Source: Patescibacteria group bacterium
Lineage (GTDB): Bacteria; Patescibacteriota; Minisyncoccia; Phycocordibacterales; JBBUBG01
Direction: 5' to 3'
NCBI GenBank assembly: GCA_040384765.1
Contig: JAZKIQ010000005.1
Coordinates: forward strand, 358 to 64,357
DNA length: 64,000 nt
Of this stretch, positions 1-64,000 are shown piece after piece. The notes under the pieces were generated by a model that had not been told where the DNA came from, did not search any database, and saw only the letters and a list, made by a program, of their open reading frames with translations. Within the stretch, counting starts at the first letter, position 1; each line of letters starts with the position of its first letter. A program made the translations under genes and the position numbers.

Positions 1-96
1 ATGCTTAGAAAAATAGAAGTACTCTTGTGGTGACAGCAAGAGAATTATCCGTGACCACATAAATCGTGCCGCGAAGCGTCAATACTTAGACCAGCC

Positions 97-447
97 ATGC
101 CCAACCACCGCATCTACACCACCAGCTTCGCAAGCGTCTATCCCCTGTATGTTCATAAGGCGGAGAAAAAAGGACGTACACAAGAAGAAGTGGATGACGT
201 CATCCGCTGGCTCACCGGGTATAGCCAAAAAGAGCTGGAAACGCAGCTTAAAAAGCAGACAGACTTTGAAACCTTCTTCGCGAATGCCCCCAAACTCAAT
301 CCTTTGCGGAGCTTGATCAAAGGGGTTGTCTGCGGTGTCCGAGTAGAAGAGATAAAAGAACCAACGATGCAGGCAATACGCTATCTAGATAAACTGGTCG
401 ACGAGCTAGCCAAAGGCAAAACAATGGAAAAAATCCTGCGGAAATAG
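97..447 (+). CDS. DUF2200-family conserved hypothetical protein
   Basis: 116 aa; N-terminal [25 protein letters not shown]...WLTGY resembles DUF2200 proteins from memory. Confidence 0.45.
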
Positions 448-456
448 ACGAACTCC

Positions 457-1227
457 CTACCCCACAAATATATTTACAAAAAGAATCACGAGCAGTATGA
501 GTATCGCGAGCACAGACGCGATCACCTTCACACTTATCGCGCTGTAGGTGTGGATGATATACGCCATGATGGCTACCCAGCTTGTAGAGAGTGCGGGGCC
601 AAGCCATGAATATTTAAAAAGCCCGAAAAAGGGCAGCAGAATATTGATGCACAGACCGAAAAGAGCCCCCAGAAGCGTACCTCCTACGAGATACGCCACC
701 TGCCGCTCGAGCGCTGTGCCTCGATATCGAGCGAGCTTCTGGACGAGTATCAGGAAGCCAGCAAAAAATGGTACGCCAAAATTGAGATGGAAAAGATACC
801 CATACGGACCAAAATCCCAACCAAGGTCGACAGATGGAGCAAGGGTAACGAACGTACTTTTAACAATGAAATCAGTGCCCAGATAAAGAGGAAGCAAGCA
901 AAGCTCAAAAAGAATGACTGCCGCGACAATACGAGTGCGGGGCTTTTCCTCTTCGGGAAAGAGGTACGCAAAATAGAGAAAGAGCGGTCCCACAAGGGCG
1001 CCGATGTAGTGATTGAAACGAGAGAGAAAAAGCGCCCAATCTGAAAATCCGCTCATAAGGAGCGCTACTCCGAAAGCCCAGAGAGCAAGGGCAAACGATA
1101 CGAGGCCGTACGCGCGAGTTGAGCGCTTTTGGTGGCCCAGTGAAAGGAAAGCTCCGAAGGCCAGAAAGATAACCCCCGAGATCCAGTTGATTATTGAATA
1201 GACGGAGAGCATTACCGGTTTTGCCAC
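457..1227 (-). CDS. integral membrane protein (multi-TM; possibly stand-alone 7TM sensor-like domain)
   Basis: 256 aa, highly hydrophobic with 7-8 predicted TM segments; start overlaps murF stop (operon coupling). Confidence 0.5.
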   Translation of the reverse strand: MAKPVMLSVYSIINWISGVIFLAFGAFLSLGHQKRSTRAYGLVSFALALWAFGVALLMSGFSDWALFLSRFNHYIGALVGPLFLYFAYLFPEEEKPRTRIVAAVILFELCLLPLYLGTDFIVKSTFVTLAPSVDLGWDFGPYGYLFHLNFGVPFFAGFLILVQKLARYRGTALERQVAYLVGGTLLGALFGLCINILLPFFGLFKYSWLGPALSTSWVAIMAYIIHTYSAISVKVIASVLAILILLVILFVNIFVG

Positions 1228-2534
1228 TCTTTCTCCTGCCGCACCAACAGCTGTTCTGCCCTCTCTGGCTCGGCCATCACCTCGAGCACTGCACGCTCCA
1301 TCCGCACGTACTGTGAACCTTTCACGAGCACCAGATCACCTTTTTTAAGAAAATCCTGAAGTGCCAAACCTGCCGCACGAGAGTCGTCGTACGACTTGAT
1401 CTTTGACTCCTTCATACCTTCGGCCAGGGCCCCATCTGCAATAAACCGTGCGCGCTGCCCGACCGTAAAAAGATACTCTGCATTTCGCGCCACCTGAAAT
1501 CCAGCTGCCTTATGAGCGTCGATCGTGTATTTGCCAAGCTCCATCATGTCGCCAAGGACGGCAATCTTGCGACCTGGCATCTCAATACCGCCAAGCACCT
1601 CGAGCGCTGCCTCTACCGCCACAGGAGACGCGTTGTAGGTGTCGTCGACAATGAGCGTCTTCTTGATACCTGGAAGCAGCTTCATGCGGCCTGGCGGCCC
1701 TTCAAATGTCAAAAGAGCAGCGATGACATGCTCCGGATCAATCCCAAGCTGGGTTCCCGCGGCAAAAGCTGCGAGAGCGCCATATACTGCCTGTCTCCCT
1801 ACGCCATGGGGCAATCGCACTGCATAGCTCTGACCTTCGTACAAAACGGTAAAGATTGTCCCCGCTGGCACATCGTGCTCACCACCCTTCTCGTAGTAGA
1901 GGTGCTGCTCGCTTGCGGCAAGATCGGCTCCAGGCCCAAAACCGTATGTAAGCACCGTAGCCTCTGACCCCTCTTTCATACCGCGCACCACCTCATCGTC
2001 GTTGTTGAGCAAAAGGATCTTCCCCTTGCCAGCTGCACGCGCCAAAGAGCCTTTTTCGTCTGCAAGATCCTTAGGAGAGGGGAAAAACTCTACGTGCACA
2101 GGAAGCGCCCCGATATAGGTGATGATCGACATCTCCGGAGCAAGCCACGTAGCTACTCTCCGAATATCTCCCGGCCTATCAGCGCCCACCTCAAGCACTA
2201 ACATCTCCGGATAGTCATGGGGAAAGAGAATAAGCGAAAGGCCGTGCAAAATGTTGGCAACCCAACCAAGAGGGTTAGACCATGCATTTGGAAGGCCAAG
2301 CACAGTCAGAGGAAGCCCGATCTCACTGTTAAAACTTTTTTCGCTCTTTCGTACCTTGAAGCGACTCCCGAGCACATGAGCTACAACATCTTTTGTGGAG
2401 GTTTTTCCCACACTCCCCGTAATGGCAACTACTCGGGGCTTGTATCGAGCGAGCACCTTTTTTGATTCCCAGATCAGGATACGACTAACGATCGATTTAA
2501 GTACAGTTTTCATAGTGTAAGCACCAAGCACCAA
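1212..2534 (-). CDS. murF: UDP-N-acetylmuramoyl-tripeptide--D-alanyl-D-alanine ligase MurF (start may be internal Met at ~2513)
   Basis: Mur ligase P-loop GSVGKTSTKD, DDTYNASP motif; last gene of dcw cluster. Confidence 0.8.
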   Translation of the reverse strand: MVLGAYTMKTVLKSIVSRILIWESKKVLARYKPRVVAITGSVGKTSTKDVVAHVLGSRFKVRKSEKSFNSEIGLPLTVLGLPNAWSNPLGWVANILHGLSLILFPHDYPEMLVLEVGADRPGDIRRVATWLAPEMSIITYIGALPVHVEFFPSPKDLADEKGSLARAAGKGKILLLNNDDEVVRGMKEGSEATVLTYGFGPGADLAASEQHLYYEKGGEHDVPAGTIFTVLYEGQSYAVRLPHGVGRQAVYGALAAFAAGTQLGIDPEHVIAALLTFEGPPGRMKLLPGIKKTLIVDDTYNASPVAVEAALEVLGGIEMPGRKIAVLGDMMELGKYTIDAHKAAGFQVARNAEYLFTVGQRARFIADGALAEGMKESKIKSYDDSRAAGLALQDFLKKGDLVLVKGSQYVRMERAVLEVMAEPERAEQLLVRQEKEWQNR

Positions 2535-2624
2535 ATTCCAGAAAAATCACAATGTCAAAAATCTAATAACCAAACTTTGAGTATTGAGTCTTGGAAACTA
2601 TCTGGAATTTGGTGCTTGTGATTT
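2524..2624. repeat. family-F inverted-repeat element copy 1 (caagcaccaaattccaga arms, ~58-nt AT-rich loop) between ftsI stop and murF start
   Basis: ccaagcaccaaattccaga ... tctggaatttggtgcttgtgattt; loop homologous to copy 2. Confidence 0.6.
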
Positions 2625-2630
2625 GTCATG

Positions 2631-4352: not shown

Positions 4353-4381
4353 AGAGAAAGTGTAGCATTTTGGTCCGCCGT

Positions 4382-4471
4382 CAGATGTTTCCTCTGAAAA
4401 GCACGATACTTTTCTACTGAAAAGTTCTCTACTCAGCGCCTTCGCGCTTCCGTAAGGCTTTTCAGAGGAAA
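4382..4471. repeat. family-C repeat copy 1 (cctctgaaaagc/gcttttcagagg 12-bp IR) in ftsL-ftsI gap
   Basis: ~80% identical over ~85 bp to copy at 15191-15282. Confidence 0.55.
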
Positions 4472-4533
4472 CATCTTCGGCTCTCAAAATGCGCGGGAGA
4501 GGGTTGGAAATACAGACGGAAACTCAAACGATG

Positions 4534-6515: not shown

Positions 6516-6696
6516 ATAAAGGAAAGATTACGGATGAGTTTTCCTGCCTCTCTGGTATCTCCTTTTTGCCGTCGCTGTCTGGGCGTGCTCGCCCAGCGCT
6601 GACTCTCGCGCCGTCGCGCTGCTAGACACGGCAAAAAGGAGCTACCTTCGAGTCAGAAAAATCATCTCGAGAGGAAGGATAGCAAGAGGGAGAAAA

Positions 6697-9232: not shown

Positions 9233-9375
9233 GTCGTTTATTGTTGCGACAATAGTACCATACCAGGACCCTAAACTCAATCGCAGAGAAAAGGTTAGAA
9301 ATACCTTTTACATGGACAGCTGATTGTATTTAGGATAGAAACAATCAAGACAAAAGAACGAAAGGAGTGCGTTGA

Positions 9376-9846
9376 ATGAGAGCGCTTGCAAAAGAAAACC
9401 TGCAGATCAACCTCCTCAACTATAGGAATGCTCGCCGAAAGGAGTTCGAACAGGAACTACTGAGGTTCTTTGAAGGTCCGATGTGGAATGCCTCAATCGG
9501 CCTTCTCGAAGCAACGGAGAGCTACATCGAGATTGCCACCACAGAGCACGGGAAGTGCATTCTCAGTGATCTCGGATTCTTCGTCATTCCGCTCAGTAAG
9601 ATGGAGCATGCTCGTAAGGTCACCATCTCTCAGGTCGCAGCCAACCTTGCACCCCTCGACACGAATCGCGACTGGAATCGACCCTCTCGATTCATCACCC
9701 AGATGCGTTTCAAGCTCGACGAGCTTGCTGGGACTCTGGCCCGAGCCCTGGATTCGAGCGACAAAACGGCGCAGGGGAAGAAAAGCAAAGCAAGGAAGGC
9801 CCCTCGAAACACGAACAAGCACCAACAAGTCACAAAGAAGAGGTAG
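9376..9846 (+). CDS. hypothetical protein (GC-rich ORFan, basic C-terminal tail)
   Basis: 156 aa; SD aaaggag-8nt-ATG; followed by strong terminator; no recognisable domain. Confidence 0.5.
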   Translation: MRALAKENLQINLLNYRNARRKEFEQELLRFFEGPMWNASIGLLEATESYIEIATTEHGKCILSDLGFFVIPLSKMEHARKVTISQVAANLAPLDTNRDWNRPSRFITQMRFKLDELAGTLARALDSSDKTAQGKKSKARKAPRNTNKHQQVTKKR

Positions 9847-9856
9847 CTCCCAATCC

Positions 9857-9891
9857 CCGCCGCGACGGCAACGTCGCGGCGGATCTATTTT
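9857..9891 (+). terminator. rho-independent terminator
   Basis: ccgccgcgacg-gcaa-cgtcgcggcgg then atctatttt. Confidence 0.65.
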
Positions 9892-9918
9892 AGAAACTCC
9901 CACTACCTCGCGTGAACT

Positions 9919-10012
9919 AAAATCCTCGTCTACGAGGCGGCCGGCGAGCATCGAGGCTAGTTGTACTACTAGCCAAGTGGCGGAGCCGCCAACGACGTAG
10001 ACGAGGATTTTA
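9919..10012. repeat. family-D element copy 2 (16-bp perfect terminal IR aaaatcctcgtctacg/cgtagacgaggatttt)
   Basis: shares gagcatcgaggc and gcggagccgccaac core with other copies. Confidence 0.55.
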
Positions 10013-10021
10013 GGAGCGCCA

Positions 10022-13797: not shown

Positions 13798-13880
13798 AGG
13801 ACAGAAGGACAGAAGTAGTTGCAGGACAGAAGTAGTACTACTTCTGTCCCTCTATACTTCTGTCCTGCAACTACTTTTTA
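13797..13880. repeat. intergenic stem-loop built from GGACAGAAG direct and inverted repeats (mreB-proS gap)
   Basis: aggacagaaggacagaagtagttgcaggacagaagtagtactacttctgtccctctatacttctgtcctgcaactac then ttttta; nested perfect hairpins. Confidence 0.55.
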
Positions 13881-15122
13881 TACCTCCTTCACAAACGCTG
13901 CAGCCTCCACCATCTTTGCTTCCATCTCCGTGCGTCTCTTCCACTCTACCTGCCCTTTCTCGAGCGATTTTTCAGAGATAATAATACGGTGCGGGAGACC
14001 AATCAGGTCAGCATCTGCAAATTTCTCCCCAGCGCGCACACTGCGATCATCAAGAAGTACGGAAACGCCTTTTTTGCGCAGCTCATTTACGAGCTTGTCT
14101 GCCTCCTGTCGCACCAGATGATCTGATTCTCCACCAAAGAGCGGGAGAATATGCACTTTGTACGGTGCCACCGCTTCCGGCCACACGATGCCCTTGTGGT
14201 CGCCCAACACTTCGACAATCGTACCCATAAGCCTCCCTACCCCGATTCCATAGCAGCCCATCTGCACCGTTTTTTCCAACCCTTCGTGGTCCTTAAACGA
14301 AAGACCAAACGGCTCCGAATATTTTGTTTTTAGCTCAAAAATATTGCCCACCTCGACAGCCTTCTCCTCTTTAAACGCCACCCCTTTGCACTCAGGGCAT
14401 GTTTCAAGATCTGCACGCACCTCTTTGTTGATAGCCGTCTGACAGTTTTCGCAGATATAGATAATATCTTCGCCAGCAGGGGTAAGTGTCTGGAACTCGT
14501 GGGAATATTTCGAAAAAGTGCCGCCGGAGGCAAACGTAAGGTAGGTCATCTGGCCAATACCCACTCGATCAAAGATATTTTTGTACACTCCCTTCATCAG
14601 ATCGTAGAACTGTGCGAGATCCTCTTCGCTCGCATGAAATGAGTACTGATCTTTCATCAAAAACTCGCGCCCGCGAAGAAGGCCGCTTTTGGCCCGCAGC
14701 TCCATGCGAAACTTATTTTGAAACTGATACGTCGAGAACGGAAGGTCCTTGTACGAAGAGACAAACTCTTGCACGAGAGGCACCACCACCTCTTCGTGGG
14801 TTGGGCCGAGGGCGTACTCCTTGCCTTCGGACTCCTGCACCTTATAGAGGACGTCGAGCGAGTCCCAGCGGCCAGTCTTTTGCCAGTTCTCCTTTGGCTG
14901 AAGTGCAGGCATTGCAATCTCCTGGGAGCCGATGGCAGACATCTCTTCGCGAATGATCTTTTTGAGATTCTCGATCACCATCTGCCCCAGAGGCAGATAG
15001 GTGTACACACCCGAAAGAAGCTTGTCGATGTAGCCTGCGCGAATGAGGAGCTGAGCATTTTTCGAAACCTCATCTTTTGGAGCTTCTTTGCGGGTTTTCG
15101 TGAAGAGTTTGGATTGGAGCAT
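13878..15122 (-). CDS. proS: prolyl-tRNA synthetase (short archaeal/eukaryotic-type); ORF track extends N-terminus to 15167
   Basis: class II aaRS; MLQSKLFTKTRKEAPKDEVSKNAQLLIRAGYI matches ProS N-terminus; C-terminal zinc cluster CENCQ...CPEC. Confidence 0.75.
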   Translation of the reverse strand: MLQSKLFTKTRKEAPKDEVSKNAQLLIRAGYIDKLLSGVYTYLPLGQMVIENLKKIIREEMSAIGSQEIAMPALQPKENWQKTGRWDSLDVLYKVQESEGKEYALGPTHEEVVVPLVQEFVSSYKDLPFSTYQFQNKFRMELRAKSGLLRGREFLMKDQYSFHASEEDLAQFYDLMKGVYKNIFDRVGIGQMTYLTFASGGTFSKYSHEFQTLTPAGEDIIYICENCQTAINKEVRADLETCPECKGVAFKEEKAVEVGNIFELKTKYSEPFGLSFKDHEGLEKTVQMGCYGIGVGRLMGTIVEVLGDHKGIVWPEAVAPYKVHILPLFGGESDHLVRQEADKLVNELRKKGVSVLLDDRSVRAGEKFADADLIGLPHRIIISEKSLEKGQVEWKRRTEMEAKMVEAAAFVKEV

Positions 15123-15190
15123 GTGGTTGTTTGAATGAATGCTACAGGAGAAAAACTGCTTGGTCAAAAAATGCCCGACTCCGATATCTA

Positions 15191-15282
15191 CCTAGAAAAG
15201 CACGATAAAATTCTGTTGAATTTTTCTCTACTCCTCGCCTTCGCTCGTCCGTAAGGCTTTTCCAGGCAAATATCCTCGTCGG
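15191..15282. repeat. family-C repeat copy 2 in proS-rseP gap
   Basis: gaaaagcacgataaaattctgttgaatttttctctactcctcgccttcgctcgtccgtaaggcttttccagg. Confidence 0.55.
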
Positions 15283-15335
15283 GCAGATGCTCTCGTGATG
15301 GTTGAGGCGAGGAAGCGGTACGCTACGCGTGCAAA

Positions 15336-16442: not shown

Positions 16443-16449
16443 GTACTTG

Positions 16450-16510
16450 CAAGAGTTCAGACATCAGAGTTTAGAGTTCAGTCTGACTGAGCTCTGATCT
16501 CTGAACTCTG
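16450..16510. repeat. family-B palindromic 9-mer cluster copy 1 (rseP start / frr stop gap)
   Basis: caagagttcagacatcagagtttagagttcagtctgactgagctctgatctctgaactctg. Confidence 0.6.
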
Positions 16511-16525
16511 TAATCTGTACTCTTC

Positions 16526-17077: not shown

Positions 17078-17093
17078 AGAAAATCATAGTTAC

Positions 17094-17153
17094 CAGAGAT
17101 CAGAGTTTAGAGTTCAGCCAGACTGAGCTCTGATAACTAAACTCTGAACTCTT
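17094..17153. repeat. family-B cluster copy 2 (frr-holB gap)
   Basis: cagagatcagagtttagagttcagccagactgagctctgataactaaactctgaactcttg. Confidence 0.6.
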
Positions 17154-17195
17154 GCTTGGGTCATATACTATCACGACGAACGAGGACCGGCCACC

Positions 17196-18340: not shown

Positions 18341-18386
18341 GTGATACAAAAAAACTATATCACTTTTTTATGAAAAGTCAACTTAA
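18341..18386 (-). promoter_or_regulatory. near-consensus promoter P2 (TTGACT-N16-TGaTATAGT) with 6-bp palindrome gtgata/tatcac at the transcription start
   Basis: minus strand reads ttgacttttcataaaaaagtgatatagtttttttgtatcac; highly similar to P1/P3/P4/P5. Confidence 0.55.
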
Positions 18387-19561: not shown

Positions 19562-19615
19562 GTGTGGGGTTAGTATGCGTTGGCAAGGTTCGTTTTGCAA
19601 ACTGGCCAAAAAAGC

Positions 19616-19722
19616 AAATCCCAAGCACCAAATTCCAGATATATTTCAATATTCAAAATACAAATAACCCAAGTTTAGTATTTGAGTTTTGAGTATTTTC
19701 TGGAATTTGGTGCTTGGGATTT
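19616..19722. repeat. family-F element copy 2 with perfect 24-bp terminal inverted repeats aaatcccaagcaccaaattccaga, in divergent mreB2/priA promoter region
   Basis: perfect 24-bp TIRs; loop aaataacccaagtttagtatttgagttttgag homologous to copy 1 loop. Confidence 0.65.
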
Positions 19723-19770
19723 GAAGAAGGAAGCGCTTCTAGATGCGCCACGTCTATGCCATTATAGCCC

Positions 19771-22287: not shown

Positions 22288-23625
22288 ATGGCTGAGATAC
22301 GTGAAATCGTACAGGAAGGGACGCCTGTTCTTCGTGAAGTTACGAAAGAGGTTCCCCTTGAATCAATACGATCTCCAAAAATTCAAAAACTGATCGCCGA
22401 GATGAAGGCGACCGCTTCCAGGTGCGTAGATGGCGTAGCCCTCGCTGCACCACAGATCGGAGAGCCACTCCGCATTTTTGTTGTATCACCTCGTGCCTAT
22501 GCAGAAGGCGAGGATCTTTCGGAAGAGAATCTCGTCTATATCAACCCCAAAATAGTAAAGCTCTCCAAGAAAAGAGAAGAGCTCGACGAAGGATGCCTCT
22601 CTGTGCGCAATGTGTATGGCAAGATCGAGCGCTCAGAACGTGCCACGATCGTCGCATATAATGAGCACGGCGTGTCATTCGAGCGAGGTGCAGGCGGACT
22701 CCTCGCAGAGATATTTCAACACGAGATGGATCATCTCGAAGGAAAGCTTTTTATCGACTTTGCACGCGATCTGCGCATGGTGCCTCCTAAAGAGGTGCCT
22801 CGATTCGTTTTTTTTGGCACACCAGAGTTTGCGGTGCAGGTAGCAGAGGAGCTTGAGAAAAAGGAGCTGCTCCCCATACTAGTGGTTGCTGCACCTGACA
22901 AGCCGGTCGGCAGGAAGGGCGTTATCACTCCCCCACCCATGAAGGTGTGGGCAGAGAAGCGGCACATACCGTGCATCCAACCAGCAACGCTCAAAGGGAA
23001 AGAGGCGCTCGATACTCTTGTCGGGGAACAGCCCATACTGTTTGTCGTTGCCGCCTACGGCAAGATCATCCCTCAATCTATTCTTGATATCCCTTCACGC
23101 GGCACCCTAAACGTGCACCCTTCGCTTCTTCCCCGCCATCGCGGAGCAGCACCTATTCAGACAGCGATTCTTGAGGGAGACAAAGAGACAGGGGTGTGCG
23201 TAATGGTGCTTGATGCAGAGATGGATCATGGGCCAATCCTAGGATGCGAGCGACTAACGCTCGGAGAGTGGAAGCCCTCATACCCAGAGCTCGAAGAGAA
23301 GCTTGCACTTATGGGAGGTAAGCTTCTCGCGCGCCTTATCCCAAAATGGGTCAAGGCAACTATTGAGCCGAAGGAGCAAGATCATGTGAAGGCAACATTT
23401 ACAAAAAAACTTGAGACCGAAGATGCATTTGTTGAGCCAGGCGAAATAGAGAGCGAGCTTGCCGATCGCAAGATTCGCGCACTGCATCCGAGCCCAGGCG
23501 CATATACGATATTAAAAACAAAGACAGGCAAAGAGGTGCGACTCAAACTGCTACCTGGAGGCAAAGTGATTCCGGAGGGGAAAAAAGAGATGCTGTTTAG
23601 AGAGTGGAAGAGGGGCAATCTCTGA
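22288..23625 (+). CDS. def-fmt: fused peptide deformylase / methionyl-tRNA formyltransferase (Def-Fmt fusion)
   Basis: N-terminus has Def motifs GVALAAPQIG, EGCLSV, QHEMDHLEG; C-terminus has Fmt motifs FFGTPEFAV, HPSLLPRHRGAAPIQ; single uninterrupted 445-aa ORF. Confidence 0.8.
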   Translation: MAEIREIVQEGTPVLREVTKEVPLESIRSPKIQKLIAEMKATASRCVDGVALAAPQIGEPLRIFVVSPRAYAEGEDLSEENLVYINPKIVKLSKKREELDEGCLSVRNVYGKIERSERATIVAYNEHGVSFERGAGGLLAEIFQHEMDHLEGKLFIDFARDLRMVPPKEVPRFVFFGTPEFAVQVAEELEKKELLPILVVAAPDKPVGRKGVITPPPMKVWAEKRHIPCIQPATLKGKEALDTLVGEQPILFVVAAYGKIIPQSILDIPSRGTLNVHPSLLPRHRGAAPIQTAILEGDKETGVCVMVLDAEMDHGPILGCERLTLGEWKPSYPELEEKLALMGGKLLARLIPKWVKATIEPKEQDHVKATFTKKLETEDAFVEPGEIESELADRKIRALHPSPGAYTILKTKTGKEVRLKLLPGGKVIPEGKKEMLFREWKRGNL

Positions 23626-23740
23626 CCAACGTCAGAGATTGCCGGTTGGTAATCCAACCGAGACCGAAGCTGCACCCGAACGATAGTGAGGAATAAGTGC
23701 AGGTGAGAAAATCTGACACAAGAGATCAGAGCTCAGTTAG

Positions 23741-23785
23741 AAAAAAATTCAAGCCCCGGTTCGCTTGCGCGAACCGGGGCTTTCC
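23741..23785 (-). terminator. GC hairpin terminator (gccccggttcgc-ttgc-gcgaaccggggc), copy 1 of a duplicated hairpin
   Basis: on minus strand followed by ttgaattttttt; near-identical copy at 24102-24131. Confidence 0.6.
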
Positions 23786-24668: not shown

Positions 24669-25376
24669 CTACTTCACTACTACGCTCGTGAGCAGAATAT
24701 CCGTAAGCGGTTTGTCTCCTTCTCCATGATTTACCGGAGCTGACTCGATCTTATCAACAATATCCATACCAGAAACGACACTGCCAAAAGCGGTATGCTT
24801 GCCGTCGAGCCATGGGGTTGCCGGGGCAGTGATAACAAAAAACTGCGAACCGTTTGTGTTTGGCCCCGCATTTGCCATTGCGAGCACACCACGCACAAGC
24901 GCCTCATCGCTCGTCTCGTCTGCAAACTGGTAGCCTGGGCCGCCAGTGCCCCAAGAGGCCCGCTTGCTTGAATCCTTTGAAAACGGATCTCCGCCCTGGA
25001 TCATGAACCCCTTGATCACTCGGTGAAAGCGGGTGCCATCGTAAAAATGCTCATGTGCAAGCTTGAGAAAATTTTCAACTGTCTTTGGAGCCTTATCGCG
25101 AAAGAGCTCGAGCTCGATAATGCCAAGCGAAGTGGTAAAGACAACATGAGGGCGAGCATTTGGGGTTTCCATAGGTTTTGGTGGGGTTTTTATAGCTGGA
25201 GAAGTAATAGCAGGAGCGGTATGAACTCCTGAGACAGCCGCGTCTCGAACAAATGAGTCTTGCTCTGTCGCGACTGACCGCGAAAAGAACACGAGGCCAC
25301 CTGCAGTAAAGGCTGAAAATACAATAAAAGTGATCCAGTAGGCGATATCTTTCATTAAAATAGAATACCGCATCAA
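24669..25376 (-). CDS. ppiB: membrane-anchored cyclophilin-type peptidyl-prolyl cis-trans isomerase
   Basis: N-terminal TM; FHRVIKGFMIQGGDP cyclophilin signature. Confidence 0.8.
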   Translation of the reverse strand: MMRYSILMKDIAYWITFIVFSAFTAGGLVFFSRSVATEQDSFVRDAAVSGVHTAPAITSPAIKTPPKPMETPNARPHVVFTTSLGIIELELFRDKAPKTVENFLKLAHEHFYDGTRFHRVIKGFMIQGGDPFSKDSSKRASWGTGGPGYQFADETSDEALVRGVLAMANAGPNTNGSQFFVITAPATPWLDGKHTAFGSVVSGMDIVDKIESAPVNHGEGDKPLTDILLTSVVVK

Positions 25377-25388
25377 GAGATAAGAGGC

Positions 25389-25479
25389 CAGAGTTCAGAG
25401 CTCAGTCAGAACGAAAGCGGCGCCTCGAAGAGGCGCCGCAGCCTGAACTCTGTTTACTGAACTCTAATCTCTAAACTCT
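25389..25479. repeat. family-B cluster copy 3 with embedded GC hairpin gcggcgcctc-gaa-gaggcgccgc (hpf-ppiB gap; last unit overlaps hpf stop codon)
   Basis: cagagttcagagctcagtcaga...gcctgaactctgtttactgaactctaatctctaaactct. Confidence 0.6.
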
Positions 25480-27094: not shown

Positions 27095-27150
27095 AACAAG
27101 AAACCGCCGAAGCGGTCTCTTGTTGTAGCAGCGACTTAAGCATTAGCTAT

Positions 27151-32919: not shown

Positions 32920-33045
32920 CGCAGTCGTCCGCAGCCGGTGCGGGGCATTTTTAAGTGTCGCTCAGCAGAGCAATGCCCCGACCGGACGACGAAAACCAGA
33001 ATAATTTTCCGCTGGGAAAATTATTCTGGTTTTCGAAAAGAATCT
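32920..33045 (+). other. two adjacent long stem-loops between lexA and dinB
   Basis: hairpin 1: gtcgtccgcagccggtgcggggcatt ... aatgccccgaccggacgac; hairpin 2: perfect 23-bp stem cgaaaaccagaataattttcc-gctg-ggaaaattattctggttttcg. Confidence 0.5.
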
Positions 33046-37187: not shown

Positions 37188-37243
37188 ATAGATAGGTACC
37201 TCCACACAAGGTTGAACCTTGTGTGGAGCAACGTACCTACATG

Positions 37244-40962: not shown

Positions 40963-42804
40963 TTAGTTTAGCTTTTGCTTTTCCCACAGCGTAAAGAATC
41001 GGCCGCGACGGGCATACAGCTCTTCAAAGCTTCCCTCCTCAAGAATAGTGCCGTTTTCAAACACAATAATTCGATCCATCTCTTTGATAGTAGAAAGGCG
41101 ATGCGCGATAACAACAGCAGTCACCTTTTCAAAAAAGCGGTGAAGCGAATCTTGAATGCGCTGTTCACTCTCGATATCAAGATGCGACGTTGCCTCGTCG
41201 AGGAGCAAGATCTCGGGCTCCTTGAACACAGCCCTCGCAAGCCCAAGCCGCTGACGCTCGCCACCCGAAAGCTTCACCCCTTTTTCGCCAATAAGCGTAT
41301 CCGGCCCAAGAGGAAGCTTGTGAAGAAAATCGGTGACATGCGCAATATCGAGCGATCTCTTAAAGAGGGCGCCGTCTTGCTCCTTTGCCATATTTGAAAT
41401 AACCACATTGTCGTGAAGGGATAGATTGAACACCTCCGTCTCTTGCAACACTGCAGCAACCCGCTCGAAATAGGAAAGTTTGCTTATCCGGCGGAGAGGA
41501 ACATCATCGATAAGAATATCCCCCGTATAGTTTTCGTACTCCTTGAGGAGAAGCTTGAAAAGCGTGGATTTCCCCGCGCCAGAAAGCCCGACAATACCCA
41601 CCTTTTCACCCCGTCGAAGTGTGAAGGATACTCCGGACAGAACAGGCTGCTTGTTGTATGAAAATGAAAGATTTCGAAGCTCGATCGCGTGCCACTCTTT
41701 TGGGAAACGACGCTTGCCACGATCGTTCTCTATGCCGACCGGTTCGTCGAGAAGCTCCTTTAGCCGAGCAATCGATGCTTTTGCGATAACAATCTCCTGG
41801 CTTATATTCGCCAAGTTTTCGATGGCACTCCAAAAATATGAATAGTACCCATAGTAGAGCACGAGGAAGCCAACCGTTTGCTGTCCCTTGGTAATCTGCC
41901 ACACAATATAGGCCGCAGAAGCAACGCGAAACCCTTGCCCCCAGATATTCTTTGTAAGGCTCGCCGTTTGAAACCACCACATGCGCTCTTCGATTTTTAT
42001 GCGAAGGTCAGATGATTTTTCCCGAATTCGCCGCATAAGCCACGGCCCCATGGACATCACCTTCACGCTACGCATATTGCCAATCGATTCAAAGAGAAGA
42101 CCGCTCATCTCCTCCTGGGCCTCGTTCACAATACGCGCACGATCTGCGGCTCGCTTGGTAAAGTAGCTCGCGATTATGGCATACGAAATAGTAAAAAGGG
42201 CGATCGAAAGAGTGAGCGGCAGATCAAATTGGGAAAGGACAAACAAAATACCGACGGAGTTTACTCCAATGGAGATGATGTTTACGATCCAGATACGCAG
42301 TATCTGGTAGATAGACTCGCCACCACGCTCAATGCGCTTGAGCTTGTTTCCCGTATTTTCGCGCTCATGCCACGCGATATCGAGCCGAAACAGCTTCCCT
42401 ATTGCCTCCTCCTGCACCTTCAGATACACACGCTCAGCAATGGCAAAGCCGTGCATCTGGGAGATATATATCGACAGATGTCTCCATATCGACACAACCA
42501 CCCACAACGAAACAATAGTGAAGATCACGCGGGTATCTGCACCCAGGGTATACGCACCGAGCAGGGTTACGAGCTGTGAGAGCGCATACGCAGGGTAGAG
42601 CCATGAGATCTCGGAAAGAAGCCGGATGATGGTCACTCCGAGAAAGTCGATCTTATGTTCACCCAGAAAACCGAGCATGTCACGAGCAAGAGCCCTATTT
42701 GAATAGGGCGCAGCCTTTTCTCGGGCCATCTTGTCAGAGGGCAGATCAGAATGGAGAAAGCTCATCAGTTTTAGTATACCAAATGACCTAAAGGGGAAAT
42801 TCAA
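40963..42804 (-). CDS. ABC exporter, fused permease/ATPase (MsbA-like)
   Basis: 6 TM plus Walker A GLSGAGKST, signature LSGGERQRLGLARA, Walker B ILLLDEATS. Confidence 0.85.
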   Translation of the reverse strand: MNFPFRSFGILKLMSFLHSDLPSDKMAREKAAPYSNRALARDMLGFLGEHKIDFLGVTIIRLLSEISWLYPAYALSQLVTLLGAYTLGADTRVIFTIVSLWVVVSIWRHLSIYISQMHGFAIAERVYLKVQEEAIGKLFRLDIAWHERENTGNKLKRIERGGESIYQILRIWIVNIISIGVNSVGILFVLSQFDLPLTLSIALFTISYAIIASYFTKRAADRARIVNEAQEEMSGLLFESIGNMRSVKVMSMGPWLMRRIREKSSDLRIKIEERMWWFQTASLTKNIWGQGFRVASAAYIVWQITKGQQTVGFLVLYYGYYSYFWSAIENLANISQEIVIAKASIARLKELLDEPVGIENDRGKRRFPKEWHAIELRNLSFSYNKQPVLSGVSFTLRRGEKVGIVGLSGAGKSTLFKLLLKEYENYTGDILIDDVPLRRISKLSYFERVAAVLQETEVFNLSLHDNVVISNMAKEQDGALFKRSLDIAHVTDFLHKLPLGPDTLIGEKGVKLSGGERQRLGLARAVFKEPEILLLDEATSHLDIESEQRIQDSLHRFFEKVTAVVIAHRLSTIKEMDRIIVFENGTILEEGSFEELYARRGRFFTLWEKQKLN

Positions 42805-43279
42805 GGGTCATGCTCCCCTCATGCGGAAGCGAATTCCATTCACCCAAGAGCTCACGCATTCGGTTTTGCACTTTTTCAATAAGCTGCTCGGTGCACCATG
42901 CAGGAACTACCTCACCTTTTGCACTGGCAATATTAGAGAGGACAGCAATCGCATCCTTGGCAGAGGCTCCACCGCGCACAACACCAGTCAGTACTCCTAC
43001 CACCATTTCAGTAGTGCCTGCTTCGGTACTGGAAGCCAGGAATATCTTTTCGGGAGAAGGATCTTCCATCCTCATTGAAAGTTCTTTAAGGGCTTTTCCT
43101 GCTGCAAGAGAGCCCCAAAATGAGTTTCTTAGATCGGCGAGAGTTTCTACGCAATAGTGGAGGAAGTCGTGAAAAAGAAACGTTTTTGTATTGAGGACAG
43201 CTTGTTCTCTCGTACCATTTTCCCGAACGAGCTCCAGCGTATGTTCCTCATACCGAAGCTTTGTAAGCTTGATCTTCAT
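42788..43279 (-). CDS. hypothetical protein; start ATG directly abuts family-A repeat arm
   Basis: ~163 aa from MKIKLTKL; ORF-track start 43303 reads through the repeat arm. Confidence 0.45.
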   Translation of the reverse strand: MKIKLTKLRYEEHTLELVRENGTREQAVLNTKTFLFHDFLHYCVETLADLRNSFWGSLAAGKALKELSMRMEDPSPEKIFLASSTEAGTTEMVVGVLTGVVRGGASAKDAIAVLSNIASAKGEVVPAWCTEQLIEKVQNRMRELLGEWNSLPHEGSMTLEFPL

Positions 43280-43384
43280 CCCGTTAGAAATTTTAGTTAG
43301 CAAAGATCACTCTATCCACAAAACAGTGATAATGGAATAAATGGTTAAACAATGAAGTACTCTTTCTATTTCTAACGGGACTCA
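43277..43384. repeat. family-A inverted-repeat element copy 1
   Basis: catcccgttagaaat ... atttctaacgggactcat; left arm supplies/abuts ATG of gene 42788-43279. Confidence 0.6.
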
Positions 43385-46288: not shown

Positions 46289-46307
46289 GTACCTAGCATA
46301 TCACGAG

Positions 46308-46410
46308 CAAGAGCTCAGTTGTCAGAGTTCAGAGTTCAGCCAAACAAAAGAGCGACGCCCTACGGGCGTCGCTCTTTTACTAAACTCTGAACTCTAATCT
46401 CTGAGCTCTG
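46308..46410. repeat. family-B cluster copy 4 with embedded terminator-like hairpin agagcgacgccc-tac-gggcgtcgctct-tttt
   Basis: caagagctcagttgtcagagttcagagttcagcc...ttttactaaactctgaactctaatctctgagctctg. Confidence 0.6.
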
Positions 46411-46413
46411 GCA

Positions 46414-52488: not shown

Positions 52489-52573
52489 CCCGTTAGAAAT
52501 TTAAGCTCTTAAACAACCATCGACATTCGATGTTTAGCGCTTTATGTAGCTGTGTATTTCTAACGGGATTCAT
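52486..52573. repeat. family-A inverted-repeat element copy 2 (atttctaacggga arms) spanning atpF stop to atpH ATG
   Basis: catcccgttagaaat ... atttctaacgggattcat; left arm contains atpH start codon. Confidence 0.6.
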
Positions 52574-53080: not shown

Positions 53081-53163
53081 CAGAGAACAGAGTTCAGTTA
53101 TCAGAGTTCAGAGTTCAGTCAAACTGAGCTCTTGCCTCTAAACTCAAAACTCTGAGTGAACTC
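53081..53163. repeat. family-B palindromic 9-mer cluster (agagttcag/ctgaactct units) filling atpE-atpF gap
   Basis: cagagaacagagttcagttatcagagttcagagttcagtcaaactgagctcttgcctctaaactcaaaactctgagtgaactcc. Confidence 0.6.
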
Positions 53164-58580: not shown

Positions 58581-58684
58581 CCCGTTAGAAATTCAAGTCC
58601 TTATAACTTTTTATAATCCAAAACAGCGACTATCTATATTGGATGATGTGCAGGTTATTCCACGCTATTTCTAACGGGACTTAT
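58578..58684. repeat. family-A inverted-repeat element copy 3, spanning stop of upstream gene to ATG of DUF2585 gene
   Basis: catcccgttagaaat ... atttctaacgggacttat; right arm overlaps stop codon 58681-58683. Confidence 0.6.
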
Positions 58685-60358: not shown

Positions 60359-60372
60359 ATACTCAGTATACT

Positions 60373-60684
60373 CTAGAGCCGTGCGATGGCGAGACCATAC
60401 TCATCATCCGTAGCCTCCGGACCCACGAGCTCGGGAAACGGGTGCTTTTGCCAATACGGCAAGTGGTTCATATTTCTCCGGGTAAGGCGCTCGGCGAGTG
60501 CGCGGTCTCCGTCGGTCGCCGCCTGGGCAAAATAGGCAATCCCTCCTTCAAAAACCTCCTGAGGCGTTTTTATCTTTCCATTCTCGGAATCGTACTTGCA
60601 CACCGGGCCATCCGGGGTTTCAAGACCGATATCTCCCGAGTGCTCTCCTTCAAACGGCATTCCACATGTGATACATGATGTCAT
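60373..60684 (-). CDS. hypothetical zinc-ribbon-like protein
   Basis: 103 aa, CITCG...CKYD cysteine pairs. Confidence 0.4.
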   Translation of the reverse strand: MTSCITCGMPFEGEHSGDIGLETPDGPVCKYDSENGKIKTPQEVFEGGIAYFAQAATDGDRALAERLTRRNMNHLPYWQKHPFPELVGPEATDDEYGLAIARL

Positions 60685-60720
60685 CTCTCTCTAAATAGTT
60701 TTTAAATAGTTGACTAGCTA

Positions 60721-61200: not shown

Positions 61201-61291
61201 AGCATCAGTGTAAGCCTTCTCGAAAGAAGAACCAACGACCTTTTCCACAAACAGGAGTTGGAGTAGTATCACAAAAGACGAAAGGGGCGAC

Positions 61292-61615
61292 ATGAAACGG
61301 ATTAGGCCCGAGAGAACCGCAAGAGGAATCGTCTTTGGAACCGAAGAAGATCTCTTCTCGTGTACTGCCTGCTCAACTGCAATACAGCTGGGAGCATACG
61401 GGGTAGCGGTGGTCATAGACGAGATCGAGTATCCACTCCCGGCTCCCAATATCGTATGCCCAGCCTGCGGCGAAGCACTCAGCGAGGTACCGGCCACCTA
61501 CGCCACGCTCAAGGAAGCCTCGGAGCGAGTATGCGAGGTTATGGACCAGCTCGAGGATGAAGAAACGATCGAGATCGCTGAGCCTGTCGAGATACGAAAG
61601 GATCTCGCAAACTAA
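61292..61615 (+). CDS. hypothetical CxxC...CxxC zinc-finger protein
   Basis: 107 aa, CTACS...CPACG; followed by terminator 61621-61656. Confidence 0.45.
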   Translation: MKRIRPERTARGIVFGTEEDLFSCTACSTAIQLGAYGVAVVIDEIEYPLPAPNIVCPACGEALSEVPATYATLKEASERVCEVMDQLEDEETIEIAEPVEIRKDLAN

Positions 61616-61620
61616 ACGCA

Positions 61621-61656
61621 AAACCCTCCCAGAGCCAACGGCTCGGGAGGGTTTGT
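61621..61656 (+). terminator. rho-independent terminator
   Basis: ccctcccagagcc-aacg-gctcgggaggg then tttgtt. Confidence 0.55.
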
Positions 61657-61706
61657 TCCTTAAGACACCCTCGTCCCTCTGTATCTGTATACGTATACAA
61701 AACGAA

Positions 61707-61741
61707 AGGGCCCGTCGCGTCATTGCTGACGCGCGGGCCCT
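61707..61741 (-). terminator. rho-independent terminator (minus strand)
   Basis: agggcccgtcgcgtca-ttgc-tgacgcgcgggccct; minus strand followed by tttcgttttgtat. Confidence 0.6.
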
Positions 61742-61743
61742 GC

Positions 61744-62037
61744 CTAAGTTTCGGTATAGCTCTCTTCGATCACCGGCTCCATTCCAGCTTCGGCAAGCTC
61801 GGCCTGTGCATCAGCAGCCACATGACGGCTGAAGATACTACAGACTATGCGTCCATTGCGGATCGTTACCGAGAGCAAAACCCTGCTGAGCGGCACCATC
61901 ATGACGGAGACCCAGATCTTCCGGGACTCAATCAGGTGATGTGTACCGTCGCGAACAGTGACCGAGAGGTCGCTGCCAAACCGAGGCTGGCAACGAACCC
62001 TGATCTTCTCAAGAACTGTAGGCACCAACATGACCAT
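61744..62037 (-). CDS. hypothetical protein
   Basis: 97 aa with own terminator. Confidence 0.4.
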   Translation of the reverse strand: MVMLVPTVLEKIRVRCQPRFGSDLSVTVRDGTHHLIESRKIWVSVMMVPLSRVLLSVTIRNGRIVCSIFSRHVAADAQAELAEAGMEPVIEESYTET

Positions 62038-62100
62038 GCATGCCTCCTTTCTTCACCGTATACAGTAACACTTAATATCTTGAAAGTCAACACCTCTCCT

Positions 62101-62592
62101 CTACCCTTTGTATGCATGCTCGAGTCCTGCAATATCGATCTTCTTCATCCCGAGCATCGCCTGCATCACCCGATCAGCCCTCTCTTTGTCCGGATCGTTG
62201 AGTAGCTCCGAGAGCTGCACTGGAATGATCTGCCAGGAAAACCCATATCGATCAGCAAGCCATCCACACTGCTGGGCTGCAGGGTCGCCGCCCGCCGAGA
62301 GCTTGCTCCAGTAGAGATCCACCTCTTCTTGAGTCTGGCACTCAACATGAAACGAGACTGCCCCCGTTGGCTTGAAAACAGGACCTCCATCAAGCGCCAT
62401 AAAACGCTGACCAAACAGCTCGAACACTGCCGTGAGCACTTTACCCTCCATCCCTTTCATGGGTTCAGGCAATGGACCCTCTGGGTATCGCTGTATACTC
62501 TCGATCTTTGAATCAGGGAAAATAGACGTGTAGAAATTGAGTGCCTCCTCACACTCGGTGTTAAACCACAAAAACGGCGTTATTTTTTGCAT
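62101..62592 (-). CDS. PhnB-like VOC-family protein (3-demethylubiquinone-9 3-methyltransferase-like domain, PF06983)
   Basis: ITPFLWFNTECEEALNFY ... CGWLADRYGFSWQI signatures. Confidence 0.6.
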   Translation of the reverse strand: MQKITPFLWFNTECEEALNFYTSIFPDSKIESIQRYPEGPLPEPMKGMEGKVLTAVFELFGQRFMALDGGPVFKPTGAVSFHVECQTQEEVDLYWSKLSAGGDPAAQQCGWLADRYGFSWQIIPVQLSELLNDPDKERADRVMQAMLGMKKIDIAGLEHAYKG

Positions 62593-62640
62593 AGTAGATG
62601 ATATTCTTCTCAGTGTATCCCCTCGAGGACGTACGACTCC

Positions 62641-63057
62641 TTGTTTTTAAACTCTCACATGATATCACTTCTCTTTGCAATACCGCTCTACTTTTACCAT
62701 CATCTTGGCACAATAGGCGGCCGGGAAAAATACGAGGGCTTTTGGGCTTCGGTATACGCTCTCGCTTCATTCGTACTTATCGCGAGCAAGCCTTCACACT
62801 TTCTTCTTTTTAGAATGGTGAGTGTGTACCGCGGTGGCCTCACTACCACCTCTCTATCGACAGAAGAGCTTCTCAACGAGTCGATCCACTATATTTCCGC
62901 ATCACCAATACAAGCGATGACTGTCTCGATAGTTCTCGGATTCATCTTTTATGGCACGACCCACTTCAGTCGCCGTTTCCACGGAGTAGCCTGCTACGGG
63001 GTGTATGTAGCAGGGATCATTGTTGCAAACCTCCTCTGCTATCTGACTCTTGTCTAG
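62641..63057 (+). CDS. membrane protein, unknown function
   Basis: 138 aa, 4 TM. Confidence 0.4.
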   Translation: MFLNSHMISLLFAIPLYFYHHLGTIGGREKYEGFWASVYALASFVLIASKPSHFLLFRMVSVYRGGLTTTSLSTEELLNESIHYISASPIQAMTVSIVLGFIFYGTTHFSRRFHGVACYGVYVAGIIVANLLCYLTLV

Positions 63058-63144
63058 TCACTCTCTACGCTAGGCAATAAAGTTATCCACCTTCCTGCTC
63101 GGCATTACATAGTAATAGCAGAGTGTGGTTGTTACAGTGAGGCT

Positions 63145-63504
63145 ATGGACACCACCGGCCCTTTTTCTCCCCTGACAAAAACTCTCCCCTGGGGCAGTTT
63201 TGATCAGTTTGTACACGAGACTCCCTGTACGGTAAAAATACTCACCATAAACCCCGGAGAGGCCCTCAGCCTCCAGAGGCACAAAAAACGCGACGAGTTT
63301 TGGCACGTGCTCGAAGGAGAAGGCACCCTCCAGATAGGAGACGAAATGATCGCAATCGAGAAAGGAACGAATCATTTTATCTCTCGCAATAGCCTTCACC
63401 GAGTATCCGCAAAGAGCGATGCGGTAAAAATTCTCGAAATATCGCTTGGAGAATTCGACGAAAGCGACATAGAACGACTCGAGGACAAGTACGGACGCAT
63501 TTAG
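63145..63504 (+). CDS. cupin-domain protein (mannose-6-phosphate isomerase C-terminal-like)
   Basis: INPGEALSLQRHKKRDEFWHVLEGEGTLQIGDE cupin motifs 1 and 2. Confidence 0.6.
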   Translation: MDTTGPFSPLTKTLPWGSFDQFVHETPCTVKILTINPGEALSLQRHKKRDEFWHVLEGEGTLQIGDEMIAIEKGTNHFISRNSLHRVSAKSDAVKILEISLGEFDESDIERLEDKYGRI

Positions 63505-63515
63505 TTCCTTCGGGA

Positions 63516-64000
63516 ATGTACGAGTACACCCTTAATCATCAGCCCGACTGGAGTTTCGCAGCCATTTTGGTACTTGCGCTCTTTGTGGTGAGTCTTTTCC
63601 GCTATGCCGGAAAAAGTGCGGGTCCCGGCAAGCATCCCCCTTTCAAACTTGTTCGATTCAAGCACAATCCCGTACTCGACCCAGTACAGAAAGAGGCGTG
63701 GGAGCAGATTGGCTCATTCAACCCTGCGGCATTTGTCGACAACGAAGGAATCGTCCATCTTTTCTACCGAGCAGTCGGAAGCGACGGACTCTCTCGCATA
63801 GGATACGCTTCAAGCGAAGACGGCGTGACATTCTCTGACCGCTCCACCTACCCCATACATGTTCCTACCCGAGAGCTTGGTTTGCCTCCTGCCTCACTCG
63901 CGTACGAAGATCGAAGATACGATACAATTAAATACAGCTCGGGCGGAGGATGGGGCGGATGCGAAGACCCGCGCGTTGTACAGATCGGAGACAGAGTATA
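63516..64000 (+). CDS. GH130-family glycoside phosphorylase/hydrolase (formerly DUF377), 3-prime partial at window edge
   Basis: NPVLDP...FNPAAFVDNEGIVHLFYRAVGSDGLSRIGYASSEDGVTF...GCEDPRVV signature; not in ORF track because it runs off the window. Confidence 0.55.
   Translation, partial: MYEYTLNHQPDWSFAAILVLALFVVSLFRYAGKSAGPGKHPPFKLVRFKHNPVLDPVQKEAWEQIGSFNPAAFVDNEGIVHLFYRAVGSDGLSRIGYASSEDGVTFSDRSTYPIHVPTRELGLPPASLAYEDRRYDTIKYSSGGGWGGCEDPRVVQIGDRV

Follow-up and report, generated by a model that had tools for sequence, protein, structure and literature searches.

Bacteria of the candidate phyla radiation are usually called extremely streamlined, yet about a quarter of the intergenic DNA in one 64,000-nt stretch of a Patescibacteria genome (contig JAZKIQ010000005.1, positions 358 to 64,357; this whole stretch is referred to as the window) is derived from repeats. 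What are these repeats, and how did they come to occupy the spacers of essential operons? We identified 20 hairpin elements in the window, which belong to six families (A-F), are about 70-120 nt long each (range 68-123 nt) and together comprise 1,980 nt, equal to 3% of the window and 24% of the 7.9 kb that are intergenic. For detection, the window was searched for inverted and direct repeats, compared with itself by BLAST and folded gap by gap, which recovered the elements at the positions listed in Table 1. The elements are dispersed in multiple copies, are insertions relative to related genomes, lie at stop-to-start junctions and each form one long hairpin that is kept by compensatory substitutions. 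We consider it probable (roughly 75%) that they are several families of non-coding mobile palindromes, resembling MITEs (miniature transposable elements with inverted repeats), REPINs or Rickettsia palindromic elements (RPEs), that colonise the intercistronic spacers of a streamlined Parcubacteria genome.

None of the elements contains an open reading frame (ORF), and all stay below the 500-bp limit for MITEs (PMC10969869). Being non-coding, bounded by terminal inverted repeats (about 4-30 bp in MITEs), dispersed and polymorphic for insertion, they have further properties of that class. Each family has two to six copies in 64 kb, except family F, which is a single locus. The arms measure 18-25 bp in family A, 20 bp in B, 14-20 bp (outer arms) in C and 12-14 bp in E, with GAGCATGTCTAAAAAC, CCCGTTAGAAAT and CAAGCACCAAATTCCAGA as examples, and the GC content, which in MITEs is low relative to the genome, is 31-38% in A and E and 41-58% in B, C and D, compared to 51% for the window. 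Inverted repeats of 14 bp or more without gaps number 18 in the window and 0-2 in shuffled sequences; all but one of the 18 are outside called ORFs. The D motif AGAGTTCAGAG, allowing at most one mismatch, matches 15 times where 1.6 matches are expected; the E arm CCCGTTAGAAAT has six exact matches (0.25 expected) and the F unit GGACAGAAG has five (0.63 expected). Folding z-scores of the gaps go down to -13. An independently assembled Logan contig of 1.7 kb (L001) is 100% identical over holB-D2-frr-D1-rseP, indicating that the elements are not an assembly artefact.

An earlier note on this DNA had reported palindromic families in the gaps at about 20 elements per 64 kb; all 11 gaps that it named hold the elements described, and the gene names behind these gaps are all correct according to NCBIfam and Pfam. 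Its statement that nearly every gap of at least 80 nt between co-directional genes is occupied went too far. On an approximate gene map there are about 26 such gaps, of which 17 (two-thirds) contain a family member, four more contain another strong hairpin or a terminator, and five are empty. Most elements do lie between co-directional genes, while A2 and Bx are in divergent gaps. Six families could be distinguished, but their unrelatedness was somewhat overstated. The element at 6539-6661 has a core in common with family B, and the atpG/atpD element is a divergent member of family C. The tiles of family D, taken for 9-mers, have a real period of 7 nt (AGAGTTC).

To define which elements are insertions, orthologous junctions were compared with relatives that share the frr neighbourhood (Frr identity 85% for L085/L086, 77% for L082, 77% for L084 and 73% for L087) and with three atp operons (L117, L118 and L119), obtained from AtpF homologues that are about 45% identical. 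Overall, the orthologous junctions in relatives measure -29 to 48 nt. The proS/mreB junction is 80 nt in the window (F1) versus 0 nt in L082, 27 nt in L084 and 48 nt in L087, and frr/rseP is 83 nt (D1) versus 8 nt in L082 and 21 nt in L087. The mraZ/rsmH junction is 143 nt (C1) versus 21 nt in L084. In the atp operon, the atpE/atpF junction is 87 nt (D5) versus 15 nt (L117) and 6 nt (L118), atpF/atpH is 88 nt (E2) versus -4 nt in each of L117-L119, and atpG/atpD is 137 nt (C5) versus 11, 4 and -29 nt in L117, L118 and L119, respectively. At hpf/ppiB, 101 nt in the window (D3) stand against a gene overlap in L084, so that the whole D3 composite was inserted. The largest difference is found at pbp2/greA, with 741 nt in the window versus 34-42 nt in L084 and L087; this stretch (9281-10021) consists of C4, an ORF (9493-9951) with a weak coding score and no Pfam match, and 212 nt of unstructured sequence.

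The same gap can also be occupied by different families. The frr/rseP gap is taken by D1 in the window but by a B-like element in both L084 and L085, and the rseP/proS gap contains B2 in the window and family C in L097 and L104; the latter junction is an insertion hot spot. Judged from these sequence comparisons, gain by insertion is much more parsimonious than repeated exact loss. Small or overlapping orthologous junctions identify the window elements as insertions and, together with the differing families per gap, support the first of two alternatives offered by the earlier note, namely heavy MITE-like colonisation with purifying selection outside the spacers. Other relatives carry ORFs at rseP/proS: a GIY-YIG ORF in L084 (11860-12126) and three small ORFs in L082 (11730-13070).

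Family C was followed beyond the window. Its five window copies are mutually only 55-65% identical and share the motifs CATCTGCTTYGT, GCAGTAC...GTACAGC, CTCGATGCTCG and CTCGCA; 17 of the 33 stem pairs are compensatory among them. A scan of JGI metagenomes with a two-motif pattern yielded 29 loci, 28 of which are true family members. RNAalifold predicted 24 pairs on the 29-sequence alignment, 16 of them with compensatory changes, and an explicit count gave 93% paired cells versus 29-55% in slid controls; none of 500 shuffles came up to the observed values. A covariance model recovered exactly the five copies in the window, including the atpG/atpD copy that was outside the training set, and outside the window three copies within 14.5 kb of L101 and the orthologue of C2 in L084. 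Applied to 1.35 Mb of distant Parcubacteria loci, the model returned two weak partial matches only. Rfam searches gave no match in the window at gathering thresholds and only noise for C1 at E-values up to 10, and in eight C-bearing loci they detected tRNAs only. Family C is apparently a widespread, undescribed structured element of about 115-125 nt with an unusual link to stop codons.

At least some of the C-bearing contigs derive from Paceibacterota: L097 and L104 keep the gene order mreB2-holB-frr-rseP-proS-mreB, L092 is an atp operon, and the RarA protein of L101 is named Candidatus Paceibacterota / Minisyncoccia and has homologues in Kaiserbacteria. In every informative intergenic case, which means 18 different metagenome loci, the copy in L084 and four or five of those in the window, C has the orientation of the upstream gene. 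The base of the outer arm carries the stop codon of this gene, at a distance of 16-22 nt (in two cases 7 nt) ahead of the ATCTGC core. The two ends are typically of the form cTAGAGCATGTCTAAAAAC and GTTTTTAAACACGCTCTAg, and the next gene often begins 3-12 nt later. About 27 of 32 copies have TA in front of the 5' arm; behind the 3' arm, TA is found in about 11 of 32, and T is the first base in about 23 of 32. Four copies from one metagenome set, which lie in four different flanks, are 88-96% identical, pointing to a recent spread of the family as read from these sequences. The outer arms are conserved within one metagenome set and differ between organisms, and the unpaired motifs are conserved over contigs of 39-61% GC.

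The sense strand of family C is 62% pyrimidine and its conserved loops are rich in C and U. The strand opposite the mRNA is predicted to be more stable in 32 of 32 copies, by 10.7 kcal/mol on average, of which composition-matched shuffles give about 4. Next to C2, on the minus strand between this element and ORF 17980-18294/holB, a strong promoter-like sequence is found at 18354-18381 (TTGACT-16-TATAGT with an extended TG), and a similar promoter-like arrangement follows the C copy of L084.

One of about 33 copies of family C is intragenic; the window copies are all intercistronic. The intragenic copy (L101:13123-13239, 88.7 bits) lies antisense and in-frame within rarA/mgsA, and the alignment of L101 RarA to E. 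coli RarA (3PVS) breaks precisely at this copy. Six RarA proteins of one Paceibacterota clade carry an insert of 37-39 residues between Walker A and Walker B that contains ARRGK and TRNKAD, the translated core motifs, whereas the insert is missing from four RarA homologues that are 85-91% identical elsewhere. As far as aligned sequences can establish it, this presence/absence pattern is proof of insertion of family C at the DNA level. A purely 3'-untranslated-region function cannot account for this behaviour.

Together, these data suggest the following course of events. Transposases whose genes lie in other parts of the genome, or in the population, would move the copies in trans, and an insertion would be tolerated only in the short space from a stop to the next start, since almost all other sequence is coding. 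Family C would insert at TA, mostly that of a stop codon, and duplicate it as IS630/Tc1-mariner-type elements do; since its arm begins with G or A, such an insertion would regenerate the stop codon. The elements are presumably co-transcribed with their operons and would not terminate transcription, because the essential genes atpD, atpH, atpF, rseP and mreB lie downstream. The long double-stranded RNA stems may then be processed or bound, with secondary co-option as a possible outcome.

A number of observations weigh against a mobile origin of this kind. A Pfam scan of about 60 window ORFs revealed no transposase, and neither an autonomous element with matching ends nor solitary family C arms flanking an ORF were found in about 1.8 Mb of other loci. 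TA is self-complementary, so that TA...TA is a direct as well as an inverted repeat and duplication is indistinguishable from extension of the palindrome, and the rarA copy of family C is without TA flanks. The old, diverged window copies of C retain near-perfect hairpins, which is unexpected of neutrally decaying MITEs, and C is sense-oriented in every intergenic case despite its symmetric ends. The arms of E are 100% conserved around unrelated loops, also in other contigs. Finally, D and F are tiled from short units and may have originated partially in situ.

The mobiliser itself could be of another type. In that case, which we regard as possible but unlikely, a Y1 single-strand transposase (IS200/IS605-type, RAYT-like) would act on the hairpins as REPIN-like doublets, and they would not be TA-duplicating DDE-type MITEs. 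The architecture of A, B and E, with two inverted conserved arms and a spacer, fits the definition of a REPIN in its layout (PMC3337134, PMC3116915), and the strict strand specificity of family C would suit single-strand transposition, but the TA-flanked ends of C look like IS630/Tc1-mariner-type insertions such as RUP/IS630-Spn1 (PMC2229807). The window is without a RAYT gene, which in REPIN systems is single-copy and flanked by the repeats; an ORF with a weak Y1_Tnp match (PF01797) is present directly upstream of atpB in a relative (L118:5229-5888), but is not flanked by repeats related to families A-F.

Pure selfishness does not explain the orientation lock of C or the retention of hairpins in its old copies, and these two features make an RNA-level role possible. 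Somewhat speculatively, family C might be more than a decaying MITE, namely a phylum-wide structured module in Paceibacterota, either as an insertion that targets and regenerates stop codons or through a fixed-sense RNA action at cistron boundaries, and the other families might be analogous lineage-specific solutions; we give this a minor chance. Such an RNA action might, for instance, serve to process or insulate polycistronic mRNAs where the organism has few regulators.

A further step would be to regard the hairpins as primarily host-functional RNA modules that spread by their usefulness, possibly as attenuators, as insulation from antisense transcription or as intercistronic sites of processing or stability, e.g. 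for RNase III. This seems quite improbable to us, since the same essential operons work in close relatives with junctions of 0-48 nt and no element, and different families replace one another in the same gap. For family C, the compensatory changes that preserve hairpins in diverged copies, the conservation of unpaired motifs across contigs of widely different GC content and the occupation of the C2 site after mreB2 in L084 as well would fit a function in the host, as would its position, always sense to and abutting the upstream stop in at least 24 independent copies, with no antisense copy among the intergenic ones. Against this, one C copy is antisense within a coding region and family B occurs in both orientations. 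The strand asymmetry of C also fits, but about 4 of the 10.7 kcal/mol arise from composition alone. Precedent is available in Correia elements and ERIC, whose effects on mRNA involve RNase III as well as RNase E (PMC10969869, PMC2229807).

The second alternative of the earlier note was that the host may use the hairpins as terminators, attenuators or processing sites. Canonical terminator architecture is lacking. Family hairpins have loops of 18-90 nt and no U-tail, in contrast to the short GC-rich stem, 3-8-nt loop and U-tract of a terminator, with the exception of the inner stems of D3 and D4; a scan for intrinsic terminators detected only the inner D4 hairpin, a weak site in C4 and one site in the loop of E2. 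Bridging of Shine-Dalgarno sequences by the hairpins was rejected, as Shine-Dalgarno sequences are absent at starts that follow an element but equally at the element-free orthologues in relatives. The strand of action was also sought in G-U pairs and minimum free energies. Non-C families slightly favour the sense strand and C the opposite strand, and composition bias makes this indecisive.

For the tiled families, D with its heptamers and F with its 8-9-mers, formation or extension in situ by slippage and template switching around existing hairpins, instead of transposition, is an explanation that we likewise consider doubtful. Their arms are tandem arrays of short units in variable number, a terminator-like hairpin is exactly central in D3 and D4, F is a single locus, and the D heptamer also forms plain tandem arrays in unrelated contigs. 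However, the heptamer palindrome is present at six separate loci in 64 kb, the identity among D1, D2 and D5 extends through the centre, and the hpf/ppiB junction of L084 has no hairpin that could have served as a seed. Chance or an assembly artefact has practically no probability, being refuted by the shuffle controls, by the identical Logan assembly over D1 and D2 and by homologous elements in independent metagenomes.

The other families differ from C and from each other in construction. Family A looks most like a classical MITE, its arms being conserved and its loop having 31-35% GC. In family B the core is conserved and the arms vary among copies, yet each pair of arms is complementary; the B-like copies of L084 and L085 align with B1 and B2 but have the opposite orientation relative to the genes, so that B occurs in both orientations. 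In family D, heptamer tiles are succeeded by the same tiles in inverse, and in D3 and D4 these enclose a GC-rich terminator-like hairpin, and D1, D2 and D5 are 78-88% identical over 53-59 nt, centre included. The 12-nt arms of family E are perfectly conserved and its loops are unrelated. All three 3' arms of E are directly followed by ATGAA, the start of the next gene, and ahead of the 5' arms stands ATGAA, ATGAG or ATAAG; a target duplication of at most 5 bp may explain these flanks. For A, B, D and F no target duplication is recognisable.

Beyond the window and its relatives, a blastn search with all elements against 80 distant Parcubacteria loci gave no credible match, and the families appear to be lineage-restricted, except C with its two weak partial matches to the covariance model. 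The exact E arms CCCGTTAGAAAT / ATTTCTAACGGG occur in viral-class contigs of IMG/VR (L142:3127-3203, L143:3246-3323 and L144:4676-4756) around unrelated loops of 53-57 nt, and two of these three copies are on one 30-kb contig. Scans of viral contigs for families C and A found none. Matches to the D pattern in viral contigs were mostly plain heptamer microsatellites in unrelated DNA and were discarded as uninformative for homology.

Table 1. Hairpin elements of the 64-kb window, with positions, strand where assigned, and surroundings.
Element	Position	Strand	Location and features
A1	2518-2627		ftsI/murF gap; arms CAAGCACCAAATTCCAGA of 18-20 bp; loop AT-rich, about 55 nt; 3' arm overlaps murF start
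A2	19615-19723		Divergent mreB2/priA gap; 25-bp arms, 59-nt loop, 31% GC; folding z -11.1
B1	4381-4479	+	ftsL/ftsI gap; perfect 20-bp arms; conserved 54-nt core on + strand, antisense to genes
B2	15170-15290	+	rseP/proS gap; arms unlike B1, self-complementary; outer GCCCGAC/GTCGGGC stem, then T-run
Bx	6539-6661		Divergent gap upstream of mraZ; 19-bp arms; CTCGCGCCGTCGCGCTGC core common to B-like L084/L085 copies
C1	5870-5986	-	mraZ/rsmH gap; covariance model 97 bits
C4	9911-10016	-	Immediately 3' of pbp2 stop; 64 bits
C2	18413-18529	-	3' of mreB2 stop, followed by promoter-like site 18381-18354; orthologous copy in L084
C3	27142-27258	-	Upstream of MFS gene; 97 bits; followed by canonical terminator hairpin 27095-27125
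C5	49492-49613	-	Fills atpG/atpD gap; divergent C, 52.9 bits; 16-25-bp outer arms ACGTATGTCTAAAAT
D1	16449-16523		Fills frr/rseP gap; heptamer-tile palindrome (AGAGTTC units)
D2	17088-17155		holB/frr gap; heptamer-tile palindrome between conserved -10-like box and frr ATG
D3	25376-25479		hpf/ppiB gap; heptamer-tile palindrome around GC-rich terminator-like hairpin; first tile includes hpf TAG stop
D4	46307-46412		Peptidoglycan-binding gene/DUF2914 gene; heptamer-tile palindrome around perfect terminator-like hairpin; z -13.0
D5	53082-53160		atpE/atpF gap; heptamer-tile palindrome
D-like half element, partial	23707-23747		Beside terminator hairpin downstream of def-fmt
E1	43280-43382	-	Arms CCCGTTAGAAAT / ATTTCTAACGGG; 3' arm abuts ATGAA start of ORF 42788-43279
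E2	52489-52570	-	Fills atpF/atpH gap; ATGAA at both flanks
E3	58581-58681	-	ORF 58681-59457/DUF2585 gene; 3' arm abuts ATGAA
F1	13798-13877		Fills proS/mreB gap; GGACAGAAG-tile palindrome, 22-bp perfect arms; single locus

The elements show similarities to several known repeat systems. The Correia/NEMIS elements (Neisseria) and RUP (Streptococcus pneumoniae) are MITEs that insert at TA, RUP being linked to IS630-Spn1 (PMC2229807), and Correia RNA is cleaved by RNase III (PMC2229807, PMC10969869). The window elements share with them a length of about 100-150 bp, terminal inverted repeats, lack of coding capacity, many intergenic copies, long hairpins that are presumably co-transcribed and, for family C, probable TA insertion, but have no sequence similarity to them, and no partner insertion sequence was found; moreover, family C is strictly sense and abuts stops, and its outer arms vary between genomes around a conserved inner core. 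RPEs are about 100-150 bp long, reside in a reduced genome and are able to sit in-frame in protein genes (PMC10969869), as does the C copy in rarA, which adds its residues without breaking the protein. They differ in phylum, in sequence and in that C is intragenic in only about 1 of 33 copies and in none of those in the window. REP/REPIN-RAYT systems combine an inverted arm pair and a spacer into a long hairpin and are extragenic, persistent, vertically inherited and present as several families per genome (PMC3337134, PMC3116915). The arm-spacer-arm layout of A, B and E is alike, whereas no RAYT was found in the available sequence.

ERIC of enterobacteria are imperfect palindromes of about 127 bp that are transcribed, intergenic, often at gene 3' ends, and alter mRNA stability (PMC10969869). 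Their sequence and host are unrelated to those of the window elements. ERIC are found in both orientations. Cyanobacterial STRR heptamer repeats and small dispersed repeats consist of heptamer tandem units in intergenic DNA. Pneumococcal SPRITE/BOX composites contain terminator-like hairpins inside repeats and elements nested in one another (PMC10969869). Family D, which is likened to SPRITE, BOX and STRR by description only, differs in joining heptamer tiles and their inverse into one palindrome. Integron attC sites (e.g. Vibrio VCRs) are imperfect palindromes of about 60-140 bp in fixed orientation 3' of a gene, with ends ...AAC / GTT.... This candidate was rejected: the R''/R' pattern RYYYAAC/GTTRRRY is not matched by the ends of C (TAAAAAC/GTTTTTA, and AAAATC/GATTTT in the window), the neighbours are core operon genes and not cassettes, and there is no integrase in the window. 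TIGR stem-loop arrays are tandem, lie beside a Tas (Nop-domain) gene and have box C/D motifs flanking the spacers (PMC12045711); this assignment was rejected as well, with elements that are dispersed singly and no Nop-domain match among the window ORFs. CRISPR was rejected on its defining features.

To place the window in the phylum, long-loop inverted repeats were counted, giving 1.9 per 10 kb in the window versus 1.4 per 10 kb in 77 other Parcubacteria loci. These 77 loci (1.3 Mb) contain 190 long inverted repeats versus 31 in shuffles, and 78 versus 0 when at least 18 bp is demanded. The window ranks high within a phenomenon that extends across the phylum but is no outlier, and the load of intergenic palindromes may be a general, overlooked feature of Parcubacteria. 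A full-text literature search retrieved no paper connecting Patescibacteria or the candidate phyla radiation with MITEs, REPs or intergenic palindromes, and a 2024 review of prokaryotic MITEs mentions neither. Such hairpins probably fragment short-read assemblies (the frr-bearing Logan contig is only 1.7 kb), and they inflate ORF calls, as several predicted N-termini extend into elements. The elements could serve as cheap markers for strain typing and insertion dating. Family C would be a clean case of a selfish palindrome living with tightly packed operons: stop-touching, orientation-locked and occasionally incorporated into a protein.

The window has a base composition of 51% GC and a negative GC skew along the whole 64 kb, with most genes on the minus strand. 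By sequence, its host is a Parcubacteria/Paceibacterota member of the candidate phyla radiation: Frr and AtpF are 100% identical to proteins of a Patescibacteria group metagenome-assembled genome in NCBI, encoded there on a 179-kb contig. None of the GTDB species representatives exceeds 65% identity in prolyl-tRNA synthetase (ProRS), the top matches being metagenome-assembled genomes of Candidatus Yonathbacteria, Nomurabacteria, Moranbacteria and Vogelbacteria. NCBIfam and Pfam confirmed murF, a gene for an FtsI-type penicillin-binding protein (PBP), an ftsL-like ORF, rsmH, mraZ, two mreB paralogues, mreC, the PBP2 gene, greA, aspS, proS, rseP, frr, holB, priA, def-fmt, ppiB, hpf and a complete atpBEFHAGDC operon. 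A tRNA/tmRNA scan of the window found none.

Some further features were noted. In relatives, a -10-like box (GATAGTAT, GATAAGAT or GATATACT) is located 8-11 nt before the ATG of frr (L082:9917-10000, L087:4050-4123 and L085:420-509), which suggests that the frr mRNA may be leaderless or near-leaderless; in the window, D2 intervenes between this box (17156-17195) and the ATG. The ProRS of the window (13878-15167) has just 414-429 amino acids, and its match to the bacterial model is split in two; it is thus a shortened variant without the insertion domain, typical of such reduced genomes. One ORF of 445 amino acids (22288-23625) fuses peptide deformylase and methionyl-tRNA formyltransferase, and the fusion is also present in L082 and L084. 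A perfect single-copy hairpin of 21 bp with a 4-nt loop (32990-33035), a possible operator or terminator, separates the gene for an S24 peptidase (LexA/UmuD-like) from that for a Y-family polymerase. At 37185-37243, a palindrome that is nearly perfect, with arms of 29 nt that are 83% complementary and 1 nt apart, lies across the start of a gene for a CopC-domain protein of 936 amino acids.

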